A DNA stretch of 14,206 bases, taken from positions 1 through 14,206 of IMG/VR virus record IMGVR_UViG_2609459844_000009; one strand, given 5' to 3'. Position numbers and translations under genes: made by a program. Source of the stretch: a virus (Duplodnaviria > Heunggongvirae > Uroviricota > Caudoviricetes). Shown here in pieces: positions 1 through 14,206 of the stretch; position 1 is the first letter of the stretch; every line of letters starts with the position of its first letter. The notes under the pieces are model-generated. The model searched no databases, had not been told where the DNA came from, and was given only the letters and a program-made list of their open reading frames with translations.

Positions 1-1155
1 ATGCTCACCGTTAAGCAGATTGAAGCAGCAAAGCCGAAAGAAAAACCATACCGCCTTCTCGATGGTAATGGCCTGTACCTTTATGTTCCTGTATCCGGGA
101 AAAAGGTATGGCAGCTTCGCTACAAGATTGACGGTAAGGAGAAAATCCTGACCGTCGGAAAATATCCGCTAATGACTTTGCAGGAGGCAAGAGATAAAGC
201 ATGGACCGCGAGGAAAGACATCTCGGTTGGCATCGATCCGGTAAAAGCGAAAAAGGCTTCGTCTAACAACAATTCCTTTAGTGCGATTTACAAGGAATGG
301 TACGAGCACAAGAAGCAAGTCTGGTCAGTAGGCTATGCAAACGAACTTGCCAAAATGTTTGACGACGACATTTTACCCATCATCGGCGGCCTTGAAATTC
401 AGGATATTGAGCCGATGCAACTGCTGGAAGTAATCCGCAGATTTGAAGATCGCGGTGCAATGGAGCGAGCCAACAAAGCCCGCAGAAGATGCGGAGAGGT
501 TTTCCGTTACGCTATTGTCACCGGAAGGGCTAAATATAACCCGGCACCTGACCTTGCAGACGCCATGAAAGGATACCGCAAGAAGAACTTCCCGTTTCTT
601 CCTGCAGACCAGATCCCGGCATTCAACAAAGCACTGGCAACATTTTCAGGAAGTATCGTATCGCTTATTGCGACTAAAGTTTTACGCTACACCGCCCTAA
701 GAACGAAAGAACTTCGTTCCATGCTATGGAAGAACGTCGATTTTGAAAACAGGATTATCACCATCGACGCCAGTGTGATGAAGGGTCGCAAGATTCATGT
801 AGTACCGATGTCAGACCAGGTAGTTGAACTTCTCACTACGCTAAGCTCAATCACCAAACCAGTATCAGAGTTTGTTTTTGCCGGGCGCAACGATAAGAAG
901 AAGCCAATCTGCGAGAACGCGGTGCTACTTGTGATCAAACAAATCGGCTATGAGGGTCTGGAAAGCGGTCACGGATTCAGGCATGAATTCAGCACGATTA
1001 TGAACGAGCACGAATGGCCTGCTGATGCTATTGAAGTGCAACTGGCACATGCCAACGGCGGATCTGTGCGCGGGATTTACAACCATGCTCAGTATCTCGA
1101 TAAACGCAGAGAAATGATGCAGTGGTGGGCGGACTGGATTGATGAAAAGGCGTGA
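1..1155 (+). CDS. intS: Tyrosine recombinase, P4-family prophage integrase (IntS-like, argW-targeting)
   Basis: 384-aa ORF starting at window position 1. N-terminal arm-binding region (KQIEAAKPKEKPYRLLDGNGLYLYV) typical of P4-type integrases; C-terminal catalytic signature HGFRHEF ... LAH ... RGIYNHAQY. Recalled as near-identical to E. coli KplE1/CPS-53 IntS. A TorI-like excisionase lies at the opposite end of the element, as in KplE1. Confidence 0.9.
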   Translation: MLTVKQIEAAKPKEKPYRLLDGNGLYLYVPVSGKKVWQLRYKIDGKEKILTVGKYPLMTLQEARDKAWTARKDISVGIDPVKAKKASSNNNSFSAIYKEWYEHKKQVWSVGYANELAKMFDDDILPIIGGLEIQDIEPMQLLEVIRRFEDRGAMERANKARRRCGEVFRYAIVTGRAKYNPAPDLADAMKGYRKKNFPFLPADQIPAFNKALATFSGSIVSLIATKVLRYTALRTKELRSMLWKNVDFENRIITIDASVMKGRKIHVVPMSDQVVELLTTLSSITKPVSEFVFAGRNDKKKPICENAVLLVIKQIGYEGLESGHGFRHEFSTIMNEHEWPADAIEVQLAHANGGSVRGIYNHAQYLDKRREMMQWWADWIDEKA

Positions 1156-3087: not shown

Positions 3088-3114
3088 CCCCTCAATCCTG
3101 AGGGGCTTTTTTTT
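3088..3114. terminator. Bidirectional rho-independent terminator between convergent acyltransferase and tailspike genes
   Basis: Hairpin CCCCTCA-atcc-TGAGGGG followed by T8 on the + strand; the tailspike stop codon overlaps the T tract on the other strand. Confidence 0.8.
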
Positions 3115-5347
3115 ACGCGGTTAATATCCAGCGCTTATCATAATAATGCATTAATCCTTGTGATGTTATTTTCATATGCACGATTGCTTGAGAAAAAGCG
3201 GCGGCAGCAAAACTTACCCTAAGAAATGTTTGTGAGCCGTTATTGTATTTAGATGTGGTAATGCCGGTTAGGTTTTTACTTCCAGCAATCATATTTGACC
3301 AAACATTACTTGAAGCTAAAGTGGCTTGATCTTTTGCTGATACGCTTACCAATATAACTCCACCGGTCTCACCAGTTCCGCCCAATCCATTCTGATTAAT
3401 TGGCATAATCTTTAACTCTGCTGCGATAAAACCCCCCCCCGTATATGAAGCTTCTTCACCAATCGTTGAAATAAGAATATCAATATTTCTTCCATATGGT
3501 ACCAAAACCGTCGCATCTTCAGTTAATACCTGAGTGTATGTGGCGTTTTTAGCTTGGTGTTTAGCGGAAAGAACCACACCATCAGAACCAGTTCGAAAGC
3601 CGATTCCAGTATGTTCCCCGTAGTATTTACCGTAATAATTTATTCCTCTGACGTCAAATTCTGAAATAGCACTTCCGGTTGTGTTTTTTACGAAAATGAA
3701 CTTATCACCGAAGGTGAAACCTCGGCACTGATATTTATTCGTTGGATCGGCAATGTTTTTAAGAAAGGAAATTCCCTTATAGGCTTTAACGTACCCACTT
3801 TCGAAACGAAAGTTCACAGGACCCTTTTGTTCATTTGCTGGTAATTCAACAAAATGAGTAACCGTGGCTCCGCTAGGGTCCTGAATCCAGCAGGAAATGT
3901 TCTCAACGGTTGCAACTGATTGGCCGTCCTCTTCATTGTAATCTGCAAAATCAAGAGCGTGCGTACCATTTATCCCTTCGATACCCATACCTTTGATAGA
4001 AAGAGAGCGGAATCCATAGAACTTATGAGGTAAAGAACAACCATCTGCAGCAATATTATTTACGGCAACGTACATTAATGGCCCCGGAGCCTTTACAGGT
4101 TCATAGGTTTCTCTATCAATCACAGCCCCCCAAAGATAACCAACACCACATTGCGAAGACCAAATTGCAGAGACATCAGTACTTGTTCCCCATATTGCAA
4201 ATCCGTATGTGCAATCATACATAAAAATATTTTGTATGACGCTGACAAATGGACACGATGGGAGCGCAAATTTATAATGGTAGAAGTCTATATTAGTTAG
4301 CTTCCAGTTCTTTCCGCCACCATACGTGGTGCTAGGACCACTTAGCAAAAGTGGACACCCTGTATATTCAGAGTCAGCGTTTCTGAAACCAATATTTTCA
4401 ATATGTAAATTATGACCCCATGAGGACATGTAAAAACCGCCATTTCCTGACGTATAAATCAAACTCTGCCTCGGGTTATCACCCTTAATATTTAAGGTGA
4501 TGCCTTCCCATCTAAACTGGCTAATGTCAATTTGAGTGTTACCAATATATATAGGCTGGTCTATAAAAATAGGAAGTTTAGTTAGATAAGCTTTATTAAG
4601 TGCTAATCCATCATTTGTTACACCTGTTAAATCGACGCCACCCATGCTTGGCGCTTTTGGGTAAGGCGTTCCCTGAATAGTACTTCCATCAATATAAGGA
4701 GCATCCATCCACGCTCCAAACATACGTGGTGTTACGTACCCCTTACCTTGAAGATCACGTTTCCAGCGTTTACCACCCACAGTGACAATGACCATGCCGT
4801 TATCATCTGCAGAAGTAGAATCTGTGAAATCGGCCACAAACAGACCACCACCAGTATCGCCTGATACTGTCGGCTTCATGCCTGTGGTGTGGAAGTCGAC
4901 GAAAATCTTTTGCTGATCTCGCTCAGGCTCAATTGTCCTTAACATTGCTATATCAGGGCATGTCCCGATGTATTTAAGACCGTCTTCCCCTGATAGAGAT
5001 ACTTTAAGCTGATCAGGATCATATTTAAGAACATTCGGAAAATAGAACTGCTGTGCACCATATGCATCATAAACAGCCATAGAATGGCCTTGCACAGTTA
5101 CGAATTTAGCAATCTGCCCATTATATACCGGATATCCAGCGGCGTTAATGATGATTGGTTGCGAAACAGGAATGTGAGAGCCATCTTCGTTCTCCACATA
5201 AACCTGAATCTGGTTTTCAGGATTTACCGGGTCAGTGTCAATTTTACCGATATAAATTTTGCCATTGGCTACGGCTTTAAAAGAACGAGCCATAGTGAAG
5301 AGTTGCGATGGCATACTCACTACAACATTGGCTGTAATGTCTGTCAT
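3113..5347 (-). CDS. Tailspike protein: P22 gp9-like N-terminal head-binding domain with divergent receptor-binding/enzymatic body
   Basis: 744-aa ORF. First ~110 residues ([11 protein letters not shown] ... [33 protein letters not shown] ... [12 protein letters not shown] ... NVLKYDPDQ) closely match the recalled P22 gp9 head-binding domain; the rest is unrelated to P22 gp9 by eye and Gly/Thr/Asn-rich as expected for a beta-helix. SD GGAG ~9 nt upstream of ATG. Confidence 0.85.
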
Positions 5348-5525: not shown

Positions 5526-6428
5526 TCAGTAGTTATGTACTGAAGGAGGTAATTCTTTATTCTTAAGTCTCATCCATGCGGAAAGATTCGTTGGTCCGTC
5601 TGGCTCATTGATATCAACATCTCGTGAGTGATTGATTAAAACGTCTCTCGCTATATCGATAATACGGGAGAACTCATAACCGCAGTCATGACATCTGCCG
5701 GAATAGTTCGATTGAATTTGTTTCAGCGCCGGATACAGTTCGCGGAATAATGCCTGTGAACGGTTAGCATAATCCCATAGCCATACAAGGCTGTTTGCTT
5801 CTTTTTCAGAAAGCTCGTTGGTTTTCTTCTCTTGTTTGCCGATGAACTCGCCTTCAAGCACTACCCTGTGGATGTACTCTACGGCTTGCGGTATCTGAGA
5901 TGCATCAAGCTCTTCAATACTTTCCACATTGAAACGCTGATGAATCATTGCATAAGCTTCTGGGTACATTAGATGCTTTTTGCTGACCAGCATATTTACA
6001 GCATCACGAAGCGGAGTCCTGTCATCAACAGATGTTTTCTTACGTGCATTTTCTGCCTTTCCCTTTGTCCAGTAGTCATGCAGCACAGTAAAGCATTCTT
6101 CCTGGTACTGAATCAGTTTATCGCGGATGTCAGCACGAACTTTCTCAGGGTTGATGCTGAACAGCCATCCATTTAACTTCTTCAAAGGAAGGCAGAGTAG
6201 CTTACGAAGCTTACCATCAGCGGCAACCATATTCATATGAATACAGTTGAACTTATCTAGTTGTTTCATAAGTTTTTGTTGCTGAGTACCCCAGCTCATT
6301 CCGAGGTTTTCAACGATTGGCTTCATCGCAACATATGCAACTCCGGCAGCCATGGCGGTGATAATCTGCTGACCATTGAAAGGCACGTAAGAGGTGTTCA
6401 CTGCTTCTAAAATTGCTATACTATTCAT
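5526..6428 (-). CDS. ant: Antirepressor Ant (P22 immI-type)
   Basis: Start chosen at the internal ATG ([22 protein letters not shown]...) preceded by GGAGA; 300 aa, the length of P22 Ant. Position (arc ... ant, then tailspike, same strand) matches P22 immI. The ORF-track start at 6458 is a TTG without an SD. Confidence 0.8.
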
Positions 6429-6490
6429 GTTGGTTTTTCTCCAAGGATTTACCGACAACCGAAGCCCTGACTGTTACCGCAGTTGGGGCT

Positions 6491-6760
6491 TCAACGTTTT
6501 TCCACTTCATTTTGAATTTGCTTAAGTAGCATATTTGTCTCGTCAAGCCTCTTGTTAATACGGTCAAGGCTTTCTACTAAATCGTTATGTGCATGTGATA
6601 CTTCGTAATTTGAGACTGATTTCTTTTCCTCTATCGTCTTTGTCAATCGTTCCCCTGATTGATACATATTGATTAACGATGTAAAAATCACGAGCAAGCA
6701 AACTACAATGATTGCGCCAGACAAAAATTGTAAAGAACGATCAAGCAATGACACCTTCAT
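6491..6760 (-). CDS. Small membrane-anchored coiled-coil protein, function unknown (inserted between arc and ant)
   Basis: 89 aa with one N-terminal hydrophobic helix (LQFLSGAIIVVCLLVIFTSLI) then a charged helical region. Start ATG overlaps the arc stop (ATGA) and is preceded by GAGGGG, indicating translational coupling to arc. P22 has no gene at this position as far as I recall. Confidence 0.65.
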   Translation of the reverse strand: MKVSLLDRSLQFLSGAIIVVCLLVIFTSLINMYQSGERLTKTIEEKKSVSNYEVSHAHNDLVESLDRINKRLDETNMLLKQIQNEVEKR

Positions 6761-6909
6761 ACCGTAATCCCCTCTCTCTTCAGACTGTCCAGCAATCGCT
6801 TAATCACTTCCGAGTTAAACGACCGGCATTCTTCTTTGGCCTTTCCTGTAATCGCATCTTTTAGCGACTGAGGCATTCTCACCAAAATTCTGCTAACTTC
6901 TTTTTCCAT
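6757..6909 (-). CDS. arc: Arc-like ribbon-helix-helix repressor
   Basis: 50 aa from the internal ATG (MEKEVSRILVRMPQSLKDAITGKAKEECRSFNSEVIKRLLDSLKREGITV); aligns with recalled P22 Arc (RxPxxLxDxxxxxAxEExRSxNSE ... KxEG). Divergent from mnt. Confidence 0.8.
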   Translation of the reverse strand: MEKEVSRILVRMPQSLKDAITGKAKEECRSFNSEVIKRLLDSLKREGITV

Positions 6910-7018
6910 ATCGCCACCACGTGAGTTATTGTGAATCACAAACATATCACCGTGACTATATCAAGTCAAAATTTTTTTGAATACACTGTGATATCAATGT
7001 GATTATCACGGTGTAAGT
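6910..7018. promoter_or_regulatory. immI divergent promoter/operator region between arc and mnt
   Basis: Contains CACGTG (6917-6922), TGTGAATCACA (6930-6940), ATCACCGTGAC (6946-6956) and its inverted partner ATCACGGTGTA (7005-7015), and the perfect palindrome TGATATCA (6988-6995). The CACCGTG/CACGGTG core resembles the centre of the recalled P22 Mnt operator (CCACGGTGG). Confidence 0.6.
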
Positions 7019-7273
7019 ATGACGAAGGTTAGAGACATAGCCCCATATAGCGTAAGAATGCCAGATAGCCTCAAGCGCGACCTGACCATAAGAGCATCGA
7101 AAAACGGACGCTCATTAAATTCAGAAATAGTTATGATCTTGCAAGCTGCTATTGATGAAGAAAAATCACCAAGATCAATAGAAGGTTTTGCTCAACAAGA
7201 ATCTGAAAAATTTAGGGAGGCTCTTCTTAAGACTCTCAGCAGCATGTACGGAGAAGATAAAAAACCCACCTGA
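7019..7273 (+). CDS. mnt: Mnt-like ribbon-helix-helix repressor
   Basis: 84 aa; N-terminal RMPDSLKRDLTIRASKNGRSLNSEIV matches the recalled P22 Mnt RHH motif (RMPxxxxxxLxxRAxxNGRSxNSE). Divergent from arc. Confidence 0.8.
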   Translation: MTKVRDIAPYSVRMPDSLKRDLTIRASKNGRSLNSEIVMILQAAIDEEKSPRSIEGFAQQESEKFREALLKTLSSMYGEDKKPT

Positions 7274-8279: not shown

Positions 8280-8434
8280 AATGCAAGCACCTTGTTGTGA
8301 TATATGCTTGCATTATATACACTGTACACACATACAAGCAAGCATAAAAACAAAACAAAATGCTTGCATTACAACCGCGCTACTCCAACTACACATTATC
8401 ATCTGGTATCCTGCACAAAACTAAGGAGGTTGGT
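8280..8434. promoter_or_regulatory. Divergent promoter region with four copies of the 10-bp palindrome ATGC(AA/TT)GCAT (putative operator array)
   Basis: Sites at 8281-8290 (ATGCAAGCAc), 8304-8313 (ATGCTTGCAT), 8336-8345 (AAGCAAGCAT) and 8360-8369 (ATGCTTGCAT); centre-to-centre spacings ~23, 32 and 24 bp. They overlap the RBS/start, -10 and -35 of the 330-aa gene's predicted promoter. Confidence 0.6.
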
Positions 8435-8764
8435 GTGCTTGAATGGTTTCTGTTGGCTGCATTAGTCGTTTCTGGTTTGGTGTATGAGTATCGAATGCAC
8501 TCTCTAACAAAAAAAATAGGAATTCTAGAAAACGAATATTGTGCTCTCAAATCCTCACTGGAACGTGAGCAAGGGGACTTAAAAATCTCTCTGTCTAGCA
8601 TTGAGCGTTCTATAGAGAGCTTAGAGGATAAGGTTGATCGTATAAAGAATGAGGATATTCATGATATTAAGGACGACATATCCTTCTTAAAATCTTGGTT
8701 GAAAAATGTTGGGAAAATTGCCACATCAACACGAGATAAGCTCAATCCATCCATGGATGACTAA
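8435..8764 (+). CDS. Small membrane-anchored coiled-coil protein, function unknown
   Basis: GTG start 5 nt after a perfect AGGAGG SD (8424-8429); ~109 aa with N-terminal hydrophobic helix (LEWFLLAALVVSGLVY) then a charged heptad-like helical region. AT-rich. The upstream ATG at 8360 lies inside operator site 4 with no SD, so I prefer the GTG. Confidence 0.55.
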   Translation: MLEWFLLAALVVSGLVYEYRMHSLTKKIGILENEYCALKSSLEREQGDLKISLSSIERSIESLEDKVDRIKNEDIHDIKDDISFLKSWLKNVGKIATSTRDKLNPSMDD

Positions 8765-9016
8765 TTACTCCTGTGCCATTCCGCTTAGCGATGCCACAAT
8801 TCCAGCTCTTGCTAAACGCTGGAACTCTTCGTTTCCTAGTGCCTCGCGTATTGCTTTTACGGCGGCCTTATTTGCCATAAATCTGCGTTCCGCCGCCGCT
8901 AATGCACCATCACTTGCCCCAACCTTAACTGCCTTTGTTGCCTCTTGAACAGCCTTTTCAATAGCGTAACGACCGCTTCTAGTTGCGGATAATTTCGCTA
9001 TCGCTCCTTTTGCCAT
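8765..9016 (-). CDS. Ala-rich small ORF, possibly the C-terminal remnant of a larger (late/ejection-type?) gene
   Basis: 83 aa from the first ATG, but the frame stays open upstream to ~9142 with no start codon and no convincing SD, suggesting a 5'-truncated remnant. Its stop codon abuts the stop of the convergent gene at 8764. Confidence 0.3.
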   Translation of the reverse strand: MAKGAIAKLSATRSGRYAIEKAVQEATKAVKVGASDGALAAAERRFMANKAAVKAIREALGNEEFQRLARAGIVASLSGMAQE

Positions 9017-9061
9017 TGCATCAATTGCCCCACCTGCAGCGCCAACGGGCCATACGCGCCA

Positions 9062-9556
9062 GTTATTTCTATTGGGGCAGTATTCTTTGACCCGAATACC
9101 GGAGAAACAGGAGAAGAGTTCTCGGTAAATATCTCGCTTGAGTCATCAATGCGATATCGGGCGCGTCCTGACGCTTCAACGATTTTATGGTGGCTGGAAC
9201 AGAGTGAAGAAGCCAGAAAATCGCTAACCAGCAACACTCAGGAGCTTTCAACGGCTCTTTCATGGTTATCTGAATTCATCATAAAGAACGCTAACCACAA
9301 ATTCGTTCAGGTTTGGGGGAATGGAGCATCATTTGACTGCGTTATTCTCCGCAACAGTTATTCGCTGACAGGGCAGCCAGTTCCGTGGCAGTGGTGGAAT
9401 GACCGCGACGTAAGAACAATCGTCGAACTTGGGAAGGTAATAGGATTCGACCCTAAGCGAGATATGCCATTCAAAGGAACTCGCCACAACGCGCTTGATG
9501 ATGCCATTCACCAAGCCAAATACGTTTCAGCGATCTGGAAAAAGTTAGCTAAATAA
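9062..9556 (+). pseudogene. DnaQ/DEDD-like 3'-5' exonuclease (Rv2179c-like phage exoribonuclease family), 5'-truncated
   Basis: Frame is open from 8903; first ATG at 9149. Translation from ~9062 (VISIGAVFFDPNTGETGEEFSVNI ... WWLEQSEEARKSL ... VQVWGNGASFDCVILRNS ... GTRHNALDDAIHQAKYV) matches this family as I recall it, including the motif III H-x4-D. The expected N-terminal DxE motif (I.D.ET.G) is absent in all three forward frames upstream. Confidence 0.5.
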
Positions 9557-9572
9557 TCAACAGGAGAAAACC

Positions 9573-9866
9573 ATGCCAGCGCCTCTGTATGGTGCGGATG
9601 ACGCGCGCCGCTGTTCCGGCAATTCCGTATCGGAGGTGCTGGATAAATTCAGAAGAAACTACGATCGGATAATGTCGCTACCACAGGAAACGAAAGAGGA
9701 AAAGGAATTTCGCCACTGTATATGGCTTGCAGAGAAAGAAGAACGCGAGCGAATTTACCAGACATCAATCCGACCATTCCGCAAAGCCACATATACCCAC
9801 TTCCCTGAAATTGACCCGCGCCTGCGTAATTACCGCTCACGCTATGGCGCTATCAGTAATGACTGA
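9573..9866 (+). CDS. Hypothetical phage early-region protein
   Basis: 97-aa ORF with GGAGA SD 7 nt upstream of ATG; tightly packed same-strand gene array. Confidence 0.6.
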   Translation: MPAPLYGADDARRCSGNSVSEVLDKFRRNYDRIMSLPQETKEEKEFRHCIWLAEKEERERIYQTSIRPFRKATYTHFPEIDPRLRNYRSRYGAISND

Positions 9867-9876
9867 GGAATTAACA

Positions 9877-10167
9877 ATGAAAACAATGAAGCTAAACATC
9901 GACCTCGGCAAATACGTTATTACCGGAACCAAACACGACCTGATTCTTAATGAAAGAGGAATTATCAAAGAAGGTGAGAATGCAGGGAAAGAAACACTAA
10001 GCCGTATCGGTTATTACAGCAAGTTTGAGCATCTGGTCAAAGAGTTATGCAACCGTGAAATCCTGTTATCTCAGGCGCAGACGCTACAGGATATTCAGCA
10101 GCATATCGAAACTTTAGGTATGTCACTTAGCATGGCTATTGACCAGTTCGTTGAGAGTAAATCATGA
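9877..10167 (+). CDS. Hypothetical phage early-region protein
   Basis: ATG ([13 protein letters not shown]...) 6 nt after GAGGAA, immediately after the upstream stop; the longer ORF-track start at 9727 overlaps the previous gene and is less likely. Confidence 0.6.
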
Positions 10168-10331
10168 GAGGACTTGCATACAATCCCGGCATTCTTCCGG
10201 CAGAAATGATTATTCGCCAACGCGTAAAGCCAATGCCATCGAGAGAGGAATTGCTTAAAAGAAAGAGTTTCGGTTCTGTTAATGACAACAAATATCTGAA
10301 TGCTATGTGGCGCAAAGGAGGCAACCAGTGA
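10164..10331 (+). CDS. Small hypothetical protein (55 aa)
   Basis: ATG overlaps the upstream stop (ATGA) and its own stop overlaps the next gene's GTG start (GTGA), suggesting translational coupling. Below the ORF-track size cutoff. Confidence 0.4.
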
Positions 10332-10582
10332 GTAATTCAGCACGACTACAGCTTGGTTTTTCACCGCTATCAAAAACTATCATGCTGGCAAAAATGCGCG
10401 ATGTTGAAGGTGGACGTATGCGCGTTGGCAATGATCCAGGTCGTGATGTTACCAATGAGGCTGCTCAATTGGTGTGGCGACTGGTCATGGCTGAAGGTGG
10501 TGAGATCGCGCGGGAGCTGGATGATGGTTCTCGCATGGTGTTGAAGGCAGAAAAGCAGGAGGCAACCAGTGAGCCAGATTGA
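10328..10582 (+). CDS. Hypothetical phage early-region protein
   Basis: GTG start 6 nt after AGGAGG; the same 17-nt SD-plus-start block (AGGAGGCAACCAGTGAG) recurs at the start of the next gene. Confidence 0.55.
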
Positions 10583-11012
10583 TTATCAGGCACTGCGTGC
10601 TAAGGCAGAAAAAGCAACGTGTGGCGAGTGGTCGCTCGAATATGGAGAGGGCCGATTTGATGGTGATGATGCGCTAATTCATCGCGAGGCTGCTGGATAT
10701 ATTCCTATTTGCAGAATTGAAGGAGCGCATCCAGAAAGCGGTTTCGATGAAGATTTCCAAATGGAACAGCAGGCCAATGCTGAATTCATCGCCGCAGCCA
10801 ATCCGGCTACCGTGCTGACACTGCTGGACGAGCTGGAAGCAGCAAAAAAGCGCATTGCAGAACTGGAAGCACGGGAAATATCGCTCCCAGAACGTAGCAG
10901 CATGCTTCATCGAACAGATTTTCACGAGGATTACCAAACGGTAATGGCATACAAAGTTTCTGAGGTCATCGCTGCAATCCGCGCCGCTGGCATTCGCATC
11001 AAAGGAGAGTGA
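10569..11012 (+). CDS. Ead/Ea22-like early protein
   Basis: 147 aa; GTG start after AGGAGG. Contains the AANPATVL.LLDELEAA...RIAELE segment that I recall as characteristic of Ead/Ea22-like proteins of lambdoid and P22-like prophages. Confidence 0.55.
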   Translation: MSQIDYQALRAKAEKATCGEWSLEYGEGRFDGDDALIHREAAGYIPICRIEGAHPESGFDEDFQMEQQANAEFIAAANPATVLTLLDELEAAKKRIAELEAREISLPERSSMLHRTDFHEDYQTVMAYKVSEVIAAIRAAGIRIKGE

Positions 11013-11013
11013 G

Positions 11014-11205
11014 ATGAACGGACAAATCTCAATTGTTCGACCGGGAGCATGTGACGATCGCGAGATACGAATGATTATTCGTCTGGCGATGGGGAAAACA
11101 ATAACAGCTCTCATTACTCCAGAAAATCTCGCATTAGCTTTAACCGGAAAGTCAGACCTGCCAGTGGAGCTAAAACTGCGAAATGTTGAGATTAAGGTGA
11201 AATAG
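11014..11205 (+). CDS. Small hypothetical protein (63 aa)
   Basis: ATG 1 nt after the upstream stop; fills the gap in the same-strand operon. Confidence 0.45.
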   Translation: MNGQISIVRPGACDDREIRMIIRLAMGKTITALITPENLALALTGKSDLPVELKLRNVEIKVK

Positions 11206-11207
11206 CC

Positions 11208-11822
11208 ATGACCACTATTACCAAAGAACGTATTGAATTGTTCATTAAAGATCCGCTTGAAAACGGGCTTACTCGTGGCGAACAAATGGAACTGGCACGA
11301 ATTGCACTGGCATCACTGGAACGCGAACAGATTCGCCACGAGCATGCCAAATGGTCTGACTCCACATTTGGCTGCGTTGGCCCCATTGGTCCGCTGAAAC
11401 ATCTCTCAAAAGAGGCTCTGGAAGCCGCAGCCGAACCTGACGATCTCAGCGAGTGGGCTGATATGCAGTTCCTGTTGTGGGATGCACAGCGCCGTGCTGG
11501 TATCAGTGATGCTGAAATTACCGCTGCTATGGAAGATAAATTGAAGATCAACATGAAGCGCCAGTGGCCTGAACCAAAAGATGGTGAGCCTCGCTTGCAC
11601 ATTAAAGAACCCGGCAACTCTCCGGTAACTCCGGATGGTTGGATAAGCTGTAGTGAGCGAATGCCAAGCGAAGAAGATGTTTTGGTTTATTGCTCAGACA
11701 CAAAAGAGCAGATGGTAGGGTTTCACAAAGGTAAAGGGTTATTTCAATTCTTTTACATGAATGGTGTTGAGGGGGTATGTGAGCCGTCACACTGGATGCC
11801 GCTACCAGAGCCTCCACTTTGA
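11208..11822 (+). CDS. DUF550/DUF551-type prophage protein (MazG-like dATP/dGTP pyrophosphohydrolase-type N-terminal region, DUF551 C-terminus)
   Basis: 204 aa; the C-terminus (...CEPSHWMPLPEPPL) matches the recalled DUF551 ending (HWMPLPEPP); the N-terminal region resembles the DUF550 module often fused to it. Confidence 0.5.
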   Translation: MTTITKERIELFIKDPLENGLTRGEQMELARIALASLEREQIRHEHAKWSDSTFGCVGPIGPLKHLSKEALEAAAEPDDLSEWADMQFLLWDAQRRAGISDAEITAAMEDKLKINMKRQWPEPKDGEPRLHIKEPGNSPVTPDGWISCSERMPSEEDVLVYCSDTKEQMVGFHKGKGLFQFFYMNGVEGVCEPSHWMPLPEPPL

Positions 11823-11919
11823 AAGCGAAGCTTATACATATCTTTTACATCAGCAATCTATTGTTAATCTCCAATCAATGTTACGTTGTCATCTCACTCA
11901 TGCTTTGGAGGTAGTGATA

Positions 11920-12098
11920 TGTCTTGTCCAAAATGCGGTTCTGGAAATATTGCAAAAGAAAAAACAATGCGTGGATGGTCTGGTGATTATGTGTGCTGCG
12001 ATTGCGGATACAACGACTCTAAAGACGCATTTGGAGAGCGTGGTAAAAACGAGTTTGTTAAAATTAATAAAGAACGCGAAGGCAACGAAAAAAGCTAA
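11920..12098 (+). CDS. Small zinc-ribbon protein
   Basis: 59 aa from the ATG 7 nt after GGAGG (MSCPKCGSGNIAKEK ... CCDCGYND): two Cys pairs in C-x2-C ... C-x-C arrangement. The longer track ORF (11886) lacks an SD. Confidence 0.55.
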
Positions 12099-12163
12099 TT
12101 TATTTATTCATATATTAAAACAATGTAACCAATATTCGAATTGAAGAACTGAAAGAACACCAA

Positions 12164-12229: not shown

Positions 12230-12430
12230 ATGCAACACGAACTACAACCTGATTCACTGGTTGATTTGAAATTCATCATGGCTGATACTGGCTTCGGTAA
12301 GACCTTCATCTATGACCGGATTAAGTCCGGCGACCTGCCAAAAGCCAAAGTTATCCACGGGCGAGCAAGATGGTTATATCGTGACCATTGTGAATTCAAA
12401 AATAAGCTCTTAAGCCGCGCCAATGGGTAA
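12230..12430 (+). CDS. torI: Excisionase / recombination directionality factor, TorI-like (AlpA/Xis family winged-helix)
   Basis: 66 aa (MQHELQPDSLVDLKFIMADTGFGKTFIYDRIKSGDLPKAKVIHGRARWLYRDHCEFKNKLLSRANG), recalled as matching KplE1 TorI. It sits at the opposite end of the prophage from int and next to the att remnant, as in KplE1. Confidence 0.8.
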   Translation: MQHELQPDSLVDLKFIMADTGFGKTFIYDRIKSGDLPKAKVIHGRARWLYRDHCEFKNKLLSRANG

Positions 12431-12503: not shown

Positions 12504-12518
12504 CTGCAGGGGACACCA
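12504..12518 (+). other. argW 3'-terminal fragment (…CTGCAGGGGACACCA): candidate attR core / right prophage boundary
   Basis: Exact 15-nt match to the recalled 3' end of tRNA-Arg argW including the CCA end, with no upstream tRNA body; non-coding host-like DNA follows. Confidence 0.6.
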
Positions 12519-12958: not shown

Positions 12959-14206
12959 CTATATTGCTGAAGGTACAGGCGTTTCCATAACTATTTGCTC
13001 GCGTTTTTTACTCAAGAAGAAAATGCCAAATAGCAACATCAGGCAGACAATACCCGAAATTGCGAAGAAAACTGTCTGGTAGCCTGCGTGGTCAAAGAGT
13101 ATCCCAGTCGGCGTTGAAAGCAGCACAATCCCAAGCGAACTGGCAATTTGAAAACCAATCAGAAAGATCGTCGACGACAGGCGCTTATCAAAATTTGCCA
13201 CGCTGTATTTGAAGACGGATATGACACAAAGTGGAACCTCAATAGCATGTAACAGCTTCACTAATGAAATAATCCAGGGGTTAACGAACAGCGCGCAGGA
13301 AAGGATACGCAACGCCATAATCACAACACCGATAAGTAATGCATTTTTTGGCCCTACCCGATTCACAAAGAAAGGAATAATCGCCATGCATAGCGCTTCG
13401 AGTACCACCTGGAATGAGTTGAGATAACCATACAGGCGCGTTCCTACATCGTGTGATTCGAATAAACCTGCATAAAAGACAGGAAAAAGTTGTTGATCAA
13501 AAATGTTATAGAAAGACCACGTCCCCACAATAAATATGACGAAAACCCAGAAGTTTCGATCCTTGAAAACTGCGATAAAATCCTCTTTTTTTACCCCTCC
13601 CGCATCCGCCGCTACGCACTGGTGATCCTTATCTTTAAAACACATGTTGATCATCATAAATACAGCGCCAAATAGCGAGACCAACCAGAAGTTGATATGG
13701 GGACTGATACTAAAAAATATGCCGGCAAAGAACGCGCCAATAGCATAGCCAAAAGATCCCCAGGCGCGCGCTGTTCCATATTCGAAATGAAAATTTCGCG
13801 CCATTTTTTCGGTGAAGCTGTCAAGCAAACCGCATCCCGCCAGATACCCCAGGCCAAAAAAGAGCGCCCCCAGAATTAGACCTACAGAAAAATTGCTTTG
13901 CAGTAACGGTTCATAAACGTAAATCATAAACGGTCCGGTCAAGACCAGGATGAAACTCATACACCAGATGAGCGGTTTCTTCAGACCGAGTTTATCCTGA
14001 ACGATGCCGTAGAACATCATAAATAGAATGCTGGTAAACTGGTTGACCGAATAAAGTGTACCTAATTCCGTCCCTGTCAACCCTAGATGTCCTTTCAGCC
14101 AAATAGCGTATAACGACCACCACAGCGACCAGGAAATAAAAAAGAGAAATGAGTAACTGGATGCAAAACGATAGTACGCATTTCTGAATGGAATATTCAG
14201 TGCCAT
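12959..14206 (-). CDS. cscB: Sucrose:H+ symporter, LacY-family MFS permease (CscB)
   Basis: 415-aa ORF with 12-TM MFS architecture; N-terminus (MALNIPFRNAYYRFASSYSFLFFISWSLWWSLYAIWLKGHLGL) recalled as E. coli CscB. The csc locus is known to lie next to argW in sucrose-positive E. coli. The window ends exactly at its start codon. Confidence 0.85.
   Translation of the reverse strand: MALNIPFRNAYYRFASSYSFLFFISWSLWWSLYAIWLKGHLGLTGTELGTLYSVNQFTSILFMMFYGIVQDKLGLKKPLIWCMSFILVLTGPFMIYVYEPLLQSNFSVGLILGALFFGLGYLAGCGLLDSFTEKMARNFHFEYGTARAWGSFGYAIGAFFAGIFFSISPHINFWLVSLFGAVFMMINMCFKDKDHQCVAADAGGVKKEDFIAVFKDRNFWVFVIFIVGTWSFYNIFDQQLFPVFYAGLFESHDVGTRLYGYLNSFQVVLEALCMAIIPFFVNRVGPKNALLIGVVIMALRILSCALFVNPWIISLVKLLHAIEVPLCVISVFKYSVANFDKRLSSTIFLIGFQIASSLGIVLLSTPTGILFDHAGYQTVFFAISGIVCLMLLFGIFFLSKKREQIVMETPVPSAI

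Follow-up and report, generated by a model that had tools for sequence, protein, structure and literature searches.

The junction at positions 8765-9556 of the stretch studied here raised a simple question. How did an exonuclease gene of the early-left operon, lacking its 5' end, come to adjoin an oppositely oriented, Ala-rich ORF? The stretch, which we call the window, was 14,206 nt of Caudoviricetes DNA (IMG/VR record IMGVR_UViG_2609459844_000009). A first-pass annotation, made from its sequence without database searches, had proposed an illegitimate deletion by which the remnant of a late gene became joined to the early-left operon. We concluded, with a probability of about 0.93, that 8765-9556 marked the place where one internal deletion had occurred in a P22-like (HK620/Sf6-type) prophage at argW. 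Comparison with other genomes then showed that the exonuclease side of such deletions ended repeatedly at the same nucleotides.

Layout of the prophage remnant

The ORF listing, Pfam scans and DNA comparison with phages and E. coli genomes were used to assign the features of the window (Table 1). It was composed of one defective P22-like (HK620/Sf6-type) prophage and one host gene. The argW gene (attL) was located just upstream of the window. In a Logan contig from run SRR1186618 (L011), which was 100% identical to the window over 11,655 nt, the DNA ran on leftward into tRNA-Arg(CCT), 162 nt 5', and yfdC. The layout of the intS side agreed with that of an annotated E. coli locus (L004), and the order argW-intS...torI-attR-cscB was confirmed in annotated E. 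coli genomes as well as in L011. Phage homology stopped at 12518. In the KplE1/HK620/Sf6 module, the int and xis genes are found at opposite ends of the integrated element (PMC2951348). The window had the same arrangement, with an IntS-type integrase directly 3' of argW and a TorI-type recombination directionality factor together with the argW core at the opposite end.

Table 1. Features of the window (positions in nt; empty cells, no entry)
Feature	Position	Strand	Basis and remarks
intS, tyrosine integrase (KplE1/HK620/Sf6-type module)	1..1155	+	Pfam Arm-DNA-bind_3, Phage_int_M, Phage_integrase
Acyltransferase-3/SGNH protein, 611 aa	1245..3080	+	Pfam PF01757 and PF19040
P22-type tailspike, 744 aa, apparently intact	3113..5347	-	Pfam Head_binding 1.6e-66; tailspike in related records
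immI region	5526..7273	mixed	Pfam P22_AR_N/P22_AR_C, Arc; gene order as in 611R6
ant (immI)	5526-6458	-	Pfam P22_AR_N/P22_AR_C
89-aa ORF (immI)			listed between ant and arc
arc (immI)	6757-6945	-	Pfam Arc
mnt-like gene (immI)	7019-7273	+	
P63C-domain protein, 330 aa	7287..8279	-	Pfam PF10546; also in 611R6 and L004
hkcB-like AT-rich ORF, 134 aa	8360..8764	+	no Pfam match; native neighbour of gene 16
Gene 16 3' remnant (DNA transfer/ejection protein)	8765..9044	-	last 93 codons and stop
Deletion junction, CA dinucleotide	9043..9044		three-way alignments, BLAST
5'-truncated Rv2179c-like DEDD 3'-5' exonuclease (exo'), exo nt 38-549	9045..9556	+	Pfam, alignment
Site B (exo A91/C92, GAATA^CCGGAG), intact in the window	9098..9099		breakpoint in other genomes
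abc2, anti-RecBCD protein, intact	9573..9866	+	Pfam PF11043, 1.9e-62, full length
Early-left 'ea' genes: DUF5405, DUF2737, DUF7446, Ead/Ea22, 63-aa ORF, dATP/dGTP pyrophosphohydrolase-DUF551 protein, 127-aa ORF	9877..12144	+	Pfam; L011 gene calls
torI-type excisionase (recombination directionality factor)	12230..12430	+	position equals torI in L004 and L120; weak HTH_17 match
attR core CTGCAGGGGACACCA	12504..12518		identical to the last 15 nt of argW
Host cscB (sucrose/oligosaccharide MFS permease), outside the prophage	12959..14206	-	annotation of L004, L006 and L120

The 611R6 homologue of the acyltransferase gene was annotated as 'Peptidoglycan/LPS O-acetylase', and its product in the window was a probable OafA-like O-antigen acetylase encoded by a lysogenic-conversion gene. 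The hkcB-like ORF had a hydrophobic N-terminus, and the rest was coiled-coil-like. Its position was conserved in 611R6, and HK620 had a shorter form of 109 aa. Within the ea genes, a single 204-aa ORF (11208-11822) combined the dATP/dGTP pyrophosphohydrolase domain with DUF551; its counterpart in L004 consisted of two pyrophosphohydrolase genes, one partial and one complete.

The junction and the two genes it joined

A BLAST search of 8300-9900 against phages returned two pieces that met at query positions 744/745. Up to 9044, gene 16 and its downstream neighbours matched 611R6 (99.5%, 8303-9044) and HK620 (97.5%), and from 9043 on the exonuclease gene and abc2 matched mEp235, mEpX2 and Bas106 (97-98%). 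BLAST and three-way alignments placed the junction at 9044/9045 (here and below, a slash marks a breakpoint), with a 2-bp microhomology, CA (9043-9044), that was common to both parents. The crossover interval extended from 9042/9043 to 9044/9045, that is, from exo nt 35/36 to 37/38. At the joint, the gene 16 parent read ...GCAGCGCCA/CCCGC, the exo parent ...ATGGGCA/ACGGGCC and the window ...GCAGCGCCA/ACGGGCC; around the CA, four of six bases also matched between the parents. The first-pass annotation had placed the truncation of both genes within 9017-9142, and the mapped break fell inside this interval.

The Ala-rich ORF (8765-9016, - strand), described earlier as open upstream of its ATG, was indeed still open 5' of that codon and turned out to be the 3' end of gene 16. 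Among the P22 proteins that had been suggested as its source (gp16, gp20 and gp7), gp16 was the match. The remnant kept 280 nt of 2169. It was assigned by its DNA identity, which was 99.6% to the annotated 611R6 gene and 95.4% to gene 16 of HK620, and gave no Pfam match itself. Full-length gene 16 encoded 722 aa, and the break was at codon ~629. The remnant lacked the length (~610-830 aa), the start codon and the PF26808 region of a complete gp16. The first-pass annotation had also taken a step in G+C content at 8765 as consistent with the deletion. The step was real (~0.38-0.40 to ~0.50) and was made by the 3' end of the AT-rich hkcB-like ORF, but in 611R6 and HK620, both of them intact phages, an hkcB-like gene and gene 16 met at the same boundary. 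Thus, it was a native boundary and did not originate from the deletion.

On the other side of the junction, the + strand frame 9020-9556 matched the Pfam family PF16473 (Rv2179c-like) with E=1.6e-65, only over profile positions 12-177 of 177. The N-terminal D-x-E (Exo I) motif, whose absence had been noticed in the first pass, was missing, and so was the native start. Intact exo homologues started with MNHLMVDLETMGNGPYAPVISIG, and the window gene kept only the part from ...NGPYAPVISIG onward, so that the D-L-E motif was lost. The gene was truncated, as had been claimed, but to a small extent: exo nt 1-37 (12 codons, MNHLMVDLETMG, holding the D-x-E of the DEDD fold) were replaced by gene 16 antisense sequence. 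Intact exonucleases of this DEDD family are encoded by lambdoid phages between ssb and abc2. Residues 13-182 of the window protein were 97-99% identical to the E. coli prophage protein, whereas the first 12 codons, the native start codon and the upstream region were gone. Since full-length homologues of both ORFs existed, neither start point was native.

The first in-frame start codon of exo' was the ATG at 9149, giving a 135-aa product. A scan of 8700-9650 for promoters and terminators found nothing, including near this ATG. Without catalytic motif I, start codon and promoter (PL was deleted), exo' is a predicted pseudogene. Both ORFs at the junction are probably dead, gene 16' having no native start.

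The exo gene was also inactivated in the otherwise intact early-left operons of four other loci (L007, L009, L080 and L090). These lesions were located at nt 59-97 and consisted of 1-nt indels, two of which fell in homopolymer runs, or of a nonsense change, GGA>TGA. They suggested that lysogens can do without exo or that selection acts against it in them, or else that sequencing errors accounted for some of the four lesions.

Deletion of the central 30 kb

The flanks of the junction were collinear with intact P22-like phages, they shared only 2 bp, and a repeat scan of the junction detected neither IS ends nor att sites nor long repeats. These are the features of an illegitimate (microhomology) deletion. 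Moreover, the late operon (...7, 20, 16) and the early-left operon (...erf, ssb, exo, abc2...) had the orientation that a simple deletion needs. HK620, Sf6, vB_EcoP-611R6 and CurroJimenez_Bas106 showed 95-99.6% DNA identity to the window arms and had the same gene order within each arm. In intact P22-like phages, gene 16 was full length (722-830 aa), exo, where present, encoded 182 aa, and ~30 kb lay between the two genes, which was missing in the window. We mapped both breakpoints on the intact genome of Bas106 (39,042 bp) and found 29.9 kb between them, via late, lysis, nin, replication, immC and PL-proximal genes. The genes absent with these ~30 kb were the rest of gene 16, genes 20, 7, 14, 26, 10, 4, 5, 8 and 1, and those for the terminase, lysis and replication, together with Q, the nin and immC genes, N, kil, erf and ssb.

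The proposed fusion of a late-gene remnant to the early-left operon was thus upheld by the collinear flanks, the full-length homologues and the expected orientation. The accompanying claim, that the virion, lysis, replication and immC regions had been removed, held for most of these genes, but the tailspike, immI (mnt/arc/ant) and the P63C gene survived. The ORF listing and Pfam revealed no head, lysis, replication or repressor genes among the window ORFs. Of the P22-like (Lederbergvirus) virion set, the window had the tailspike and the final 93 codons of gene 16 and nothing else, and no window ORF corresponded to immC (c2/cro), a replication gene, Q or a gene of the lysis cassette.

The left arm was closest to 611R6 and the right arm to mEp235/Bas106. 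Since no closely related strain with an intact ancestral prophage was identified, the deletion was deduced from mosaic relatives. Other strains had independent central deletions at the same argW/cscB locus, for example gp14'/...ssb in Z0117EC0133. In strain 2017.18.04CC, a DNA-transfer gene adjoined erf, according to the feature list under a two-piece 2.2-kb match. P22-like remnants with differing, independent central deletions at argW/cscB were observed in L004, L006, L010/L013, L120, L125-L128 and H26. Some of them stacked several junctions (e.g., tailspike/ninB'/exo'), and the int, tailspike, abc2, ea and torI genes were retained repeatedly.

In the mechanism that we propose, the joint would have been made by RecA-independent illegitimate (microhomology-mediated) end joining or by template switching. 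The outcome would be a 12.7-kb KplE1-like cryptic prophage, unable to form particles or to kill the cell, and still holding the O-antigen acyltransferase, tailspike, immI, abc2 and ea genes. Excision might be possible since intS and torI were kept and looked intact. As a more speculative element, the break on the exo side was perhaps not random.

Recurrent breakpoints in exo

A look-up of the exact 135-aa exo' product returned many contigs with differing upstream partners. When these contigs were aligned, exo homology began at only two places, which we designated sites A and B. The look-up could only detect endpoints within exo nt ~34-138. Because of this bias, we took three samples that were independent of truncation.

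Site A (exo A37/A38, with homology from nt 36; CA/ACGGG) was the junction of the window. It was also found in L014, where an SfI-type myovirus prophage, integrated at another att site, had its tail sheath gene as the partner. Positions 404-410 of L014 and 9043-9049 of the window had the same CA microhomology, and both partners read CACC. The L014 deletion was independent of that in the window and ended at the same exo nucleotide. A scan of viral contigs gave no further A-type junction, and site A was represented by two events.

Site B was located 54 nt downstream of the window junction and was intact in the window (9098/9099). At least 13 independent deletions ended there, with unrelated partners, in both directions and with 0-10 nt of microhomology. 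Eleven distinct partners were joined to a right-hand fragment that always started at C92 (L005, L006, L008, L010/L013, L012, L019/L076, L020/L064, L120, L129, L130 and L131). In the opposite direction, the left part of exo was kept up to A91/C92 and joined to the host gene torS (L118/L119) or to the ea region (L121). Besides these two, the partners included gene 20, gp10, gp26/14, ninB, N and tail genes. Between -260 and +150, no further illegitimate joints were observed.

The first of the three samples comprised ~100 loci from metagenomes, IMG/VR and GTDB, chosen by a 37-mer to the right of B; from -260 to +94 it contained just two illegitimate joints, each with a new partner and each at B. 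The second was selected by the first 34 nt of exo and included one locus, L118, which kept exo to nt 92 and then changed. A closed genome showed this change to be a deletion that ran rightward through int and attL into torS. The third sample was 5,426 complete E. coli genomes, in which 154 records had exo nt 1-201. Four of the 154 were partial, and the three of these that were examined all broke at B: N'/exo (ZY22049), exo/ea (EC24) and exo/torS (2017-02-2CC). In addition, a protein search revealed three in-frame fusions, all at B and with further partners.

In E. coli 2017-02-2CC (L119, 12001-12460), the site B deletion took the rest of the prophage arm, int, attL and the 5' part of torS. A truncated Hpt-domain pseudogene was left, that is, a host sensor kinase was inactivated by a prophage breakpoint.

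The microhomology in seven intact partner genes was 3-10 nt (ATAC, ATACC, ATA, ATA, TAC, AATA and ATgCCGGAGA). Three other B junctions had ATG, TTA or CTG in place of the exo ATA (nt 89-91). A91/C92, within GAATA^CCGGAG, was the sole crossover position compatible with every B event. Complete genomes also had exo endpoints at nt 260, 352, 432 and 450 (19 of 171 records, many of them clonal), and B was thus a strong hot spot rather than the only breakpoint. The endpoints at nt 260, 352 and 432 (L124-L127) began with TAT or AATA (/TATCTG, /TATTCG and /AATAGG), and B with /ATACC. Three of the four other endpoints thus resembled B, and the joints may favour A/T-rich steps. A literature search for a description of the site A and B breakpoints found none.

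What could break exo at these positions

One explanation was that a sequence-specific nick or break determined the exo-side end. A nuclease or a DNA structure would cause it at A37/A38 and A91/C92, and the broken end would then be joined to any available end or single-stranded region. The recurrence described above spoke for it: gene 16 in the window and the tail sheath gene in L014 were joined to exo at the same nucleotide, 11 partners met C92 and two opposite deletions stopped at A91/C92, and the joints in both the 37-mer sample and the examined complete genomes lay at B. On the other hand, site A was known from two events in a search limited to nt ~34-138 and gained none in the viral contigs, and complete genomes had four further endpoints. 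The individual agents that we considered (see below) also fitted poorly. We regard a specific break as possible, although the balance is somewhat against it. It refines the mechanism of the deletion and does not contradict it. With the same reserve, we tentatively propose that the first 100 nt of exo contain two nucleotide-precise fragile points, and that deletions in P22-like, SfI-like myovirus and HK022-att prophages start there in either direction. The simplest description would be that the top strand was nicked or broken at A^C and that the end was then joined with low homology.

A DNA structure was the first candidate agent. Site B was part of an inverted repeat, (A/G)GTATTC-N8-GAATACC (9079-9100), and fell within its 3' arm. 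However, this 7-bp repeat did not fold significantly better than shuffled sequences (z = -1.4), which makes for a weak hairpin, and site A had no comparable structure.

The second candidate was a 159-aa Cys-rich HNH protein (phrog_2340, no Pfam match), whose gene lay between ssb and exo in ~22 of 111 loci (about 20%). The boundary of this gene was 52-53 nt upstream of the exo start (e.g., Bas106, L122, 23095-23574, and L007, 6169-6648). The protein looks like a free-standing homing endonuclease. However, the exo 5' haplotypes with and without the HNH gene were identical at A and B, and thus there was no sign of target immunity. Other HNH genes (NUMOD4-HNH_3 and HNH_3-AP2) were present elsewhere in the operons of L005, L009, L119 and L130.

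GajA, the Gabija nuclease of B. cereus, has the nicking motif TNNNS^RGGNNA (PMC8136825). This motif fitted the bottom strand at exo nt 91-81 (TATTC^GGGTCA), but the predicted nick was at 86/87, 5 nt away from 91/92. An 18-nt polypurine tract (GGAGAAACAGGAGAAGAG) was located at 9101-9118, starting 2 nt after site B. Either this tract or the fit to the GajA motif could be relevant to fragility, or the two could be coincidental.

A staggered cut at B with the overlap ATAC was rejected: the ATA(C) that intact partners showed was microhomology, and it was absent from three partners. By inspection only, the junction sequences did not fit the classical gyrase consensus, Chi, lambda-type core sites, integron R boxes, IS91/ISCR and pC194-type nick motifs, WCCGGW-type restriction sites or the PAM geometry of Cas9, Cas12 and type I systems. 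Selection was also rejected as a cause, being not nucleotide-precise; the events had no commonly kept or lost gene except exo.

Other origins of the joined sequence

Returning to the deletion itself, two further readings of the junction were considered. Because the arms were best matched by different phages (611R6/HK620 on the left, mEp235/Bas106 on the right) and no intact ancestor was found, the junction could in principle have brought together two elements by illegitimate recombination, either two lambdoid prophages resident in the same cell or a prophage and an infecting phage. However, mosaicism is normal in this phage group, and Bas106 had both arm types in one genome. Moreover, the two ends of the remnant were matching halves of one module (argW/intS, and torI with the argW core) between yfdC and cscB. 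We therefore consider an origin from two elements very unlikely.

The junction 35-mer had no matches in GTDB species representatives and IMG/VR, and no complete E. coli genome spanned the junction. The only other contig that carried it was L011, which was probably from the same strain as the window and therefore did not confirm the assembly independently. That the junction was an assembly chimera is the least credible reading of all: lambdoid prophage segments do repeat within genomes and can mislead short-read assemblers, and L011 may come from the same reads, but the structure was a coherent att-bounded element, equivalent junctions were present in closed long-read genomes, and flanks that share only 2 bp are joined in a k-mer graph only by reads that span the junction.

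Comparison with known systems and implications

The remnant resembled KplE1 (CPS-53) of E. coli K-12 in its argW site, in the location of intS by attL and torI by attR, in its size (~10-13 kb) and in the loss of the cI/immC region and the morphogenesis genes (PMC2951348). The deletion junction of the window was different and independent. The cargo also differed: the window had the acyltransferase, an intact tailspike, immI, gene 16', exo', abc2 and ea genes, whereas the K-12 KplE1 cargo is presumably composed of gtrABS, tfaS and the yfdK-T genes.

Short-homology-independent or microhomology-mediated illegitimate recombination in E. coli is behind the lambda bio/Spi- transducing phages and alternative end joining. 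The junctions studied here resembled its products: the joints had 0-5 bp of homology, the deletions were large, neither IS nor att sites took part, and there were hot spots. In contrast, the endpoint at site B was one and the same phosphodiester bond in at least 13 events and in both directions.

The junction in the window is a product of ordinary prophage decay, a deletion scar of an already known kind. It represented a textbook path from a temperate phage to a cryptic, harmless remnant, in which the genes for killing and for particles were lost and the genes for conversion, exclusion and the recombination module were kept. The unexpected part was the recurrence of the exo endpoint, chiefly the 13-fold recurrent breakpoint at B. 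If a specific nuclease or structure were responsible, the domestication of prophages would be in part a directed process instead of a random one, and exo would provide a hot spot at which illegitimate recombination in E. coli is accessible to experiment. In that case, a sequence-specific nick or break would repeatedly trigger prophage decay, sometimes deleting host genes such as torS.
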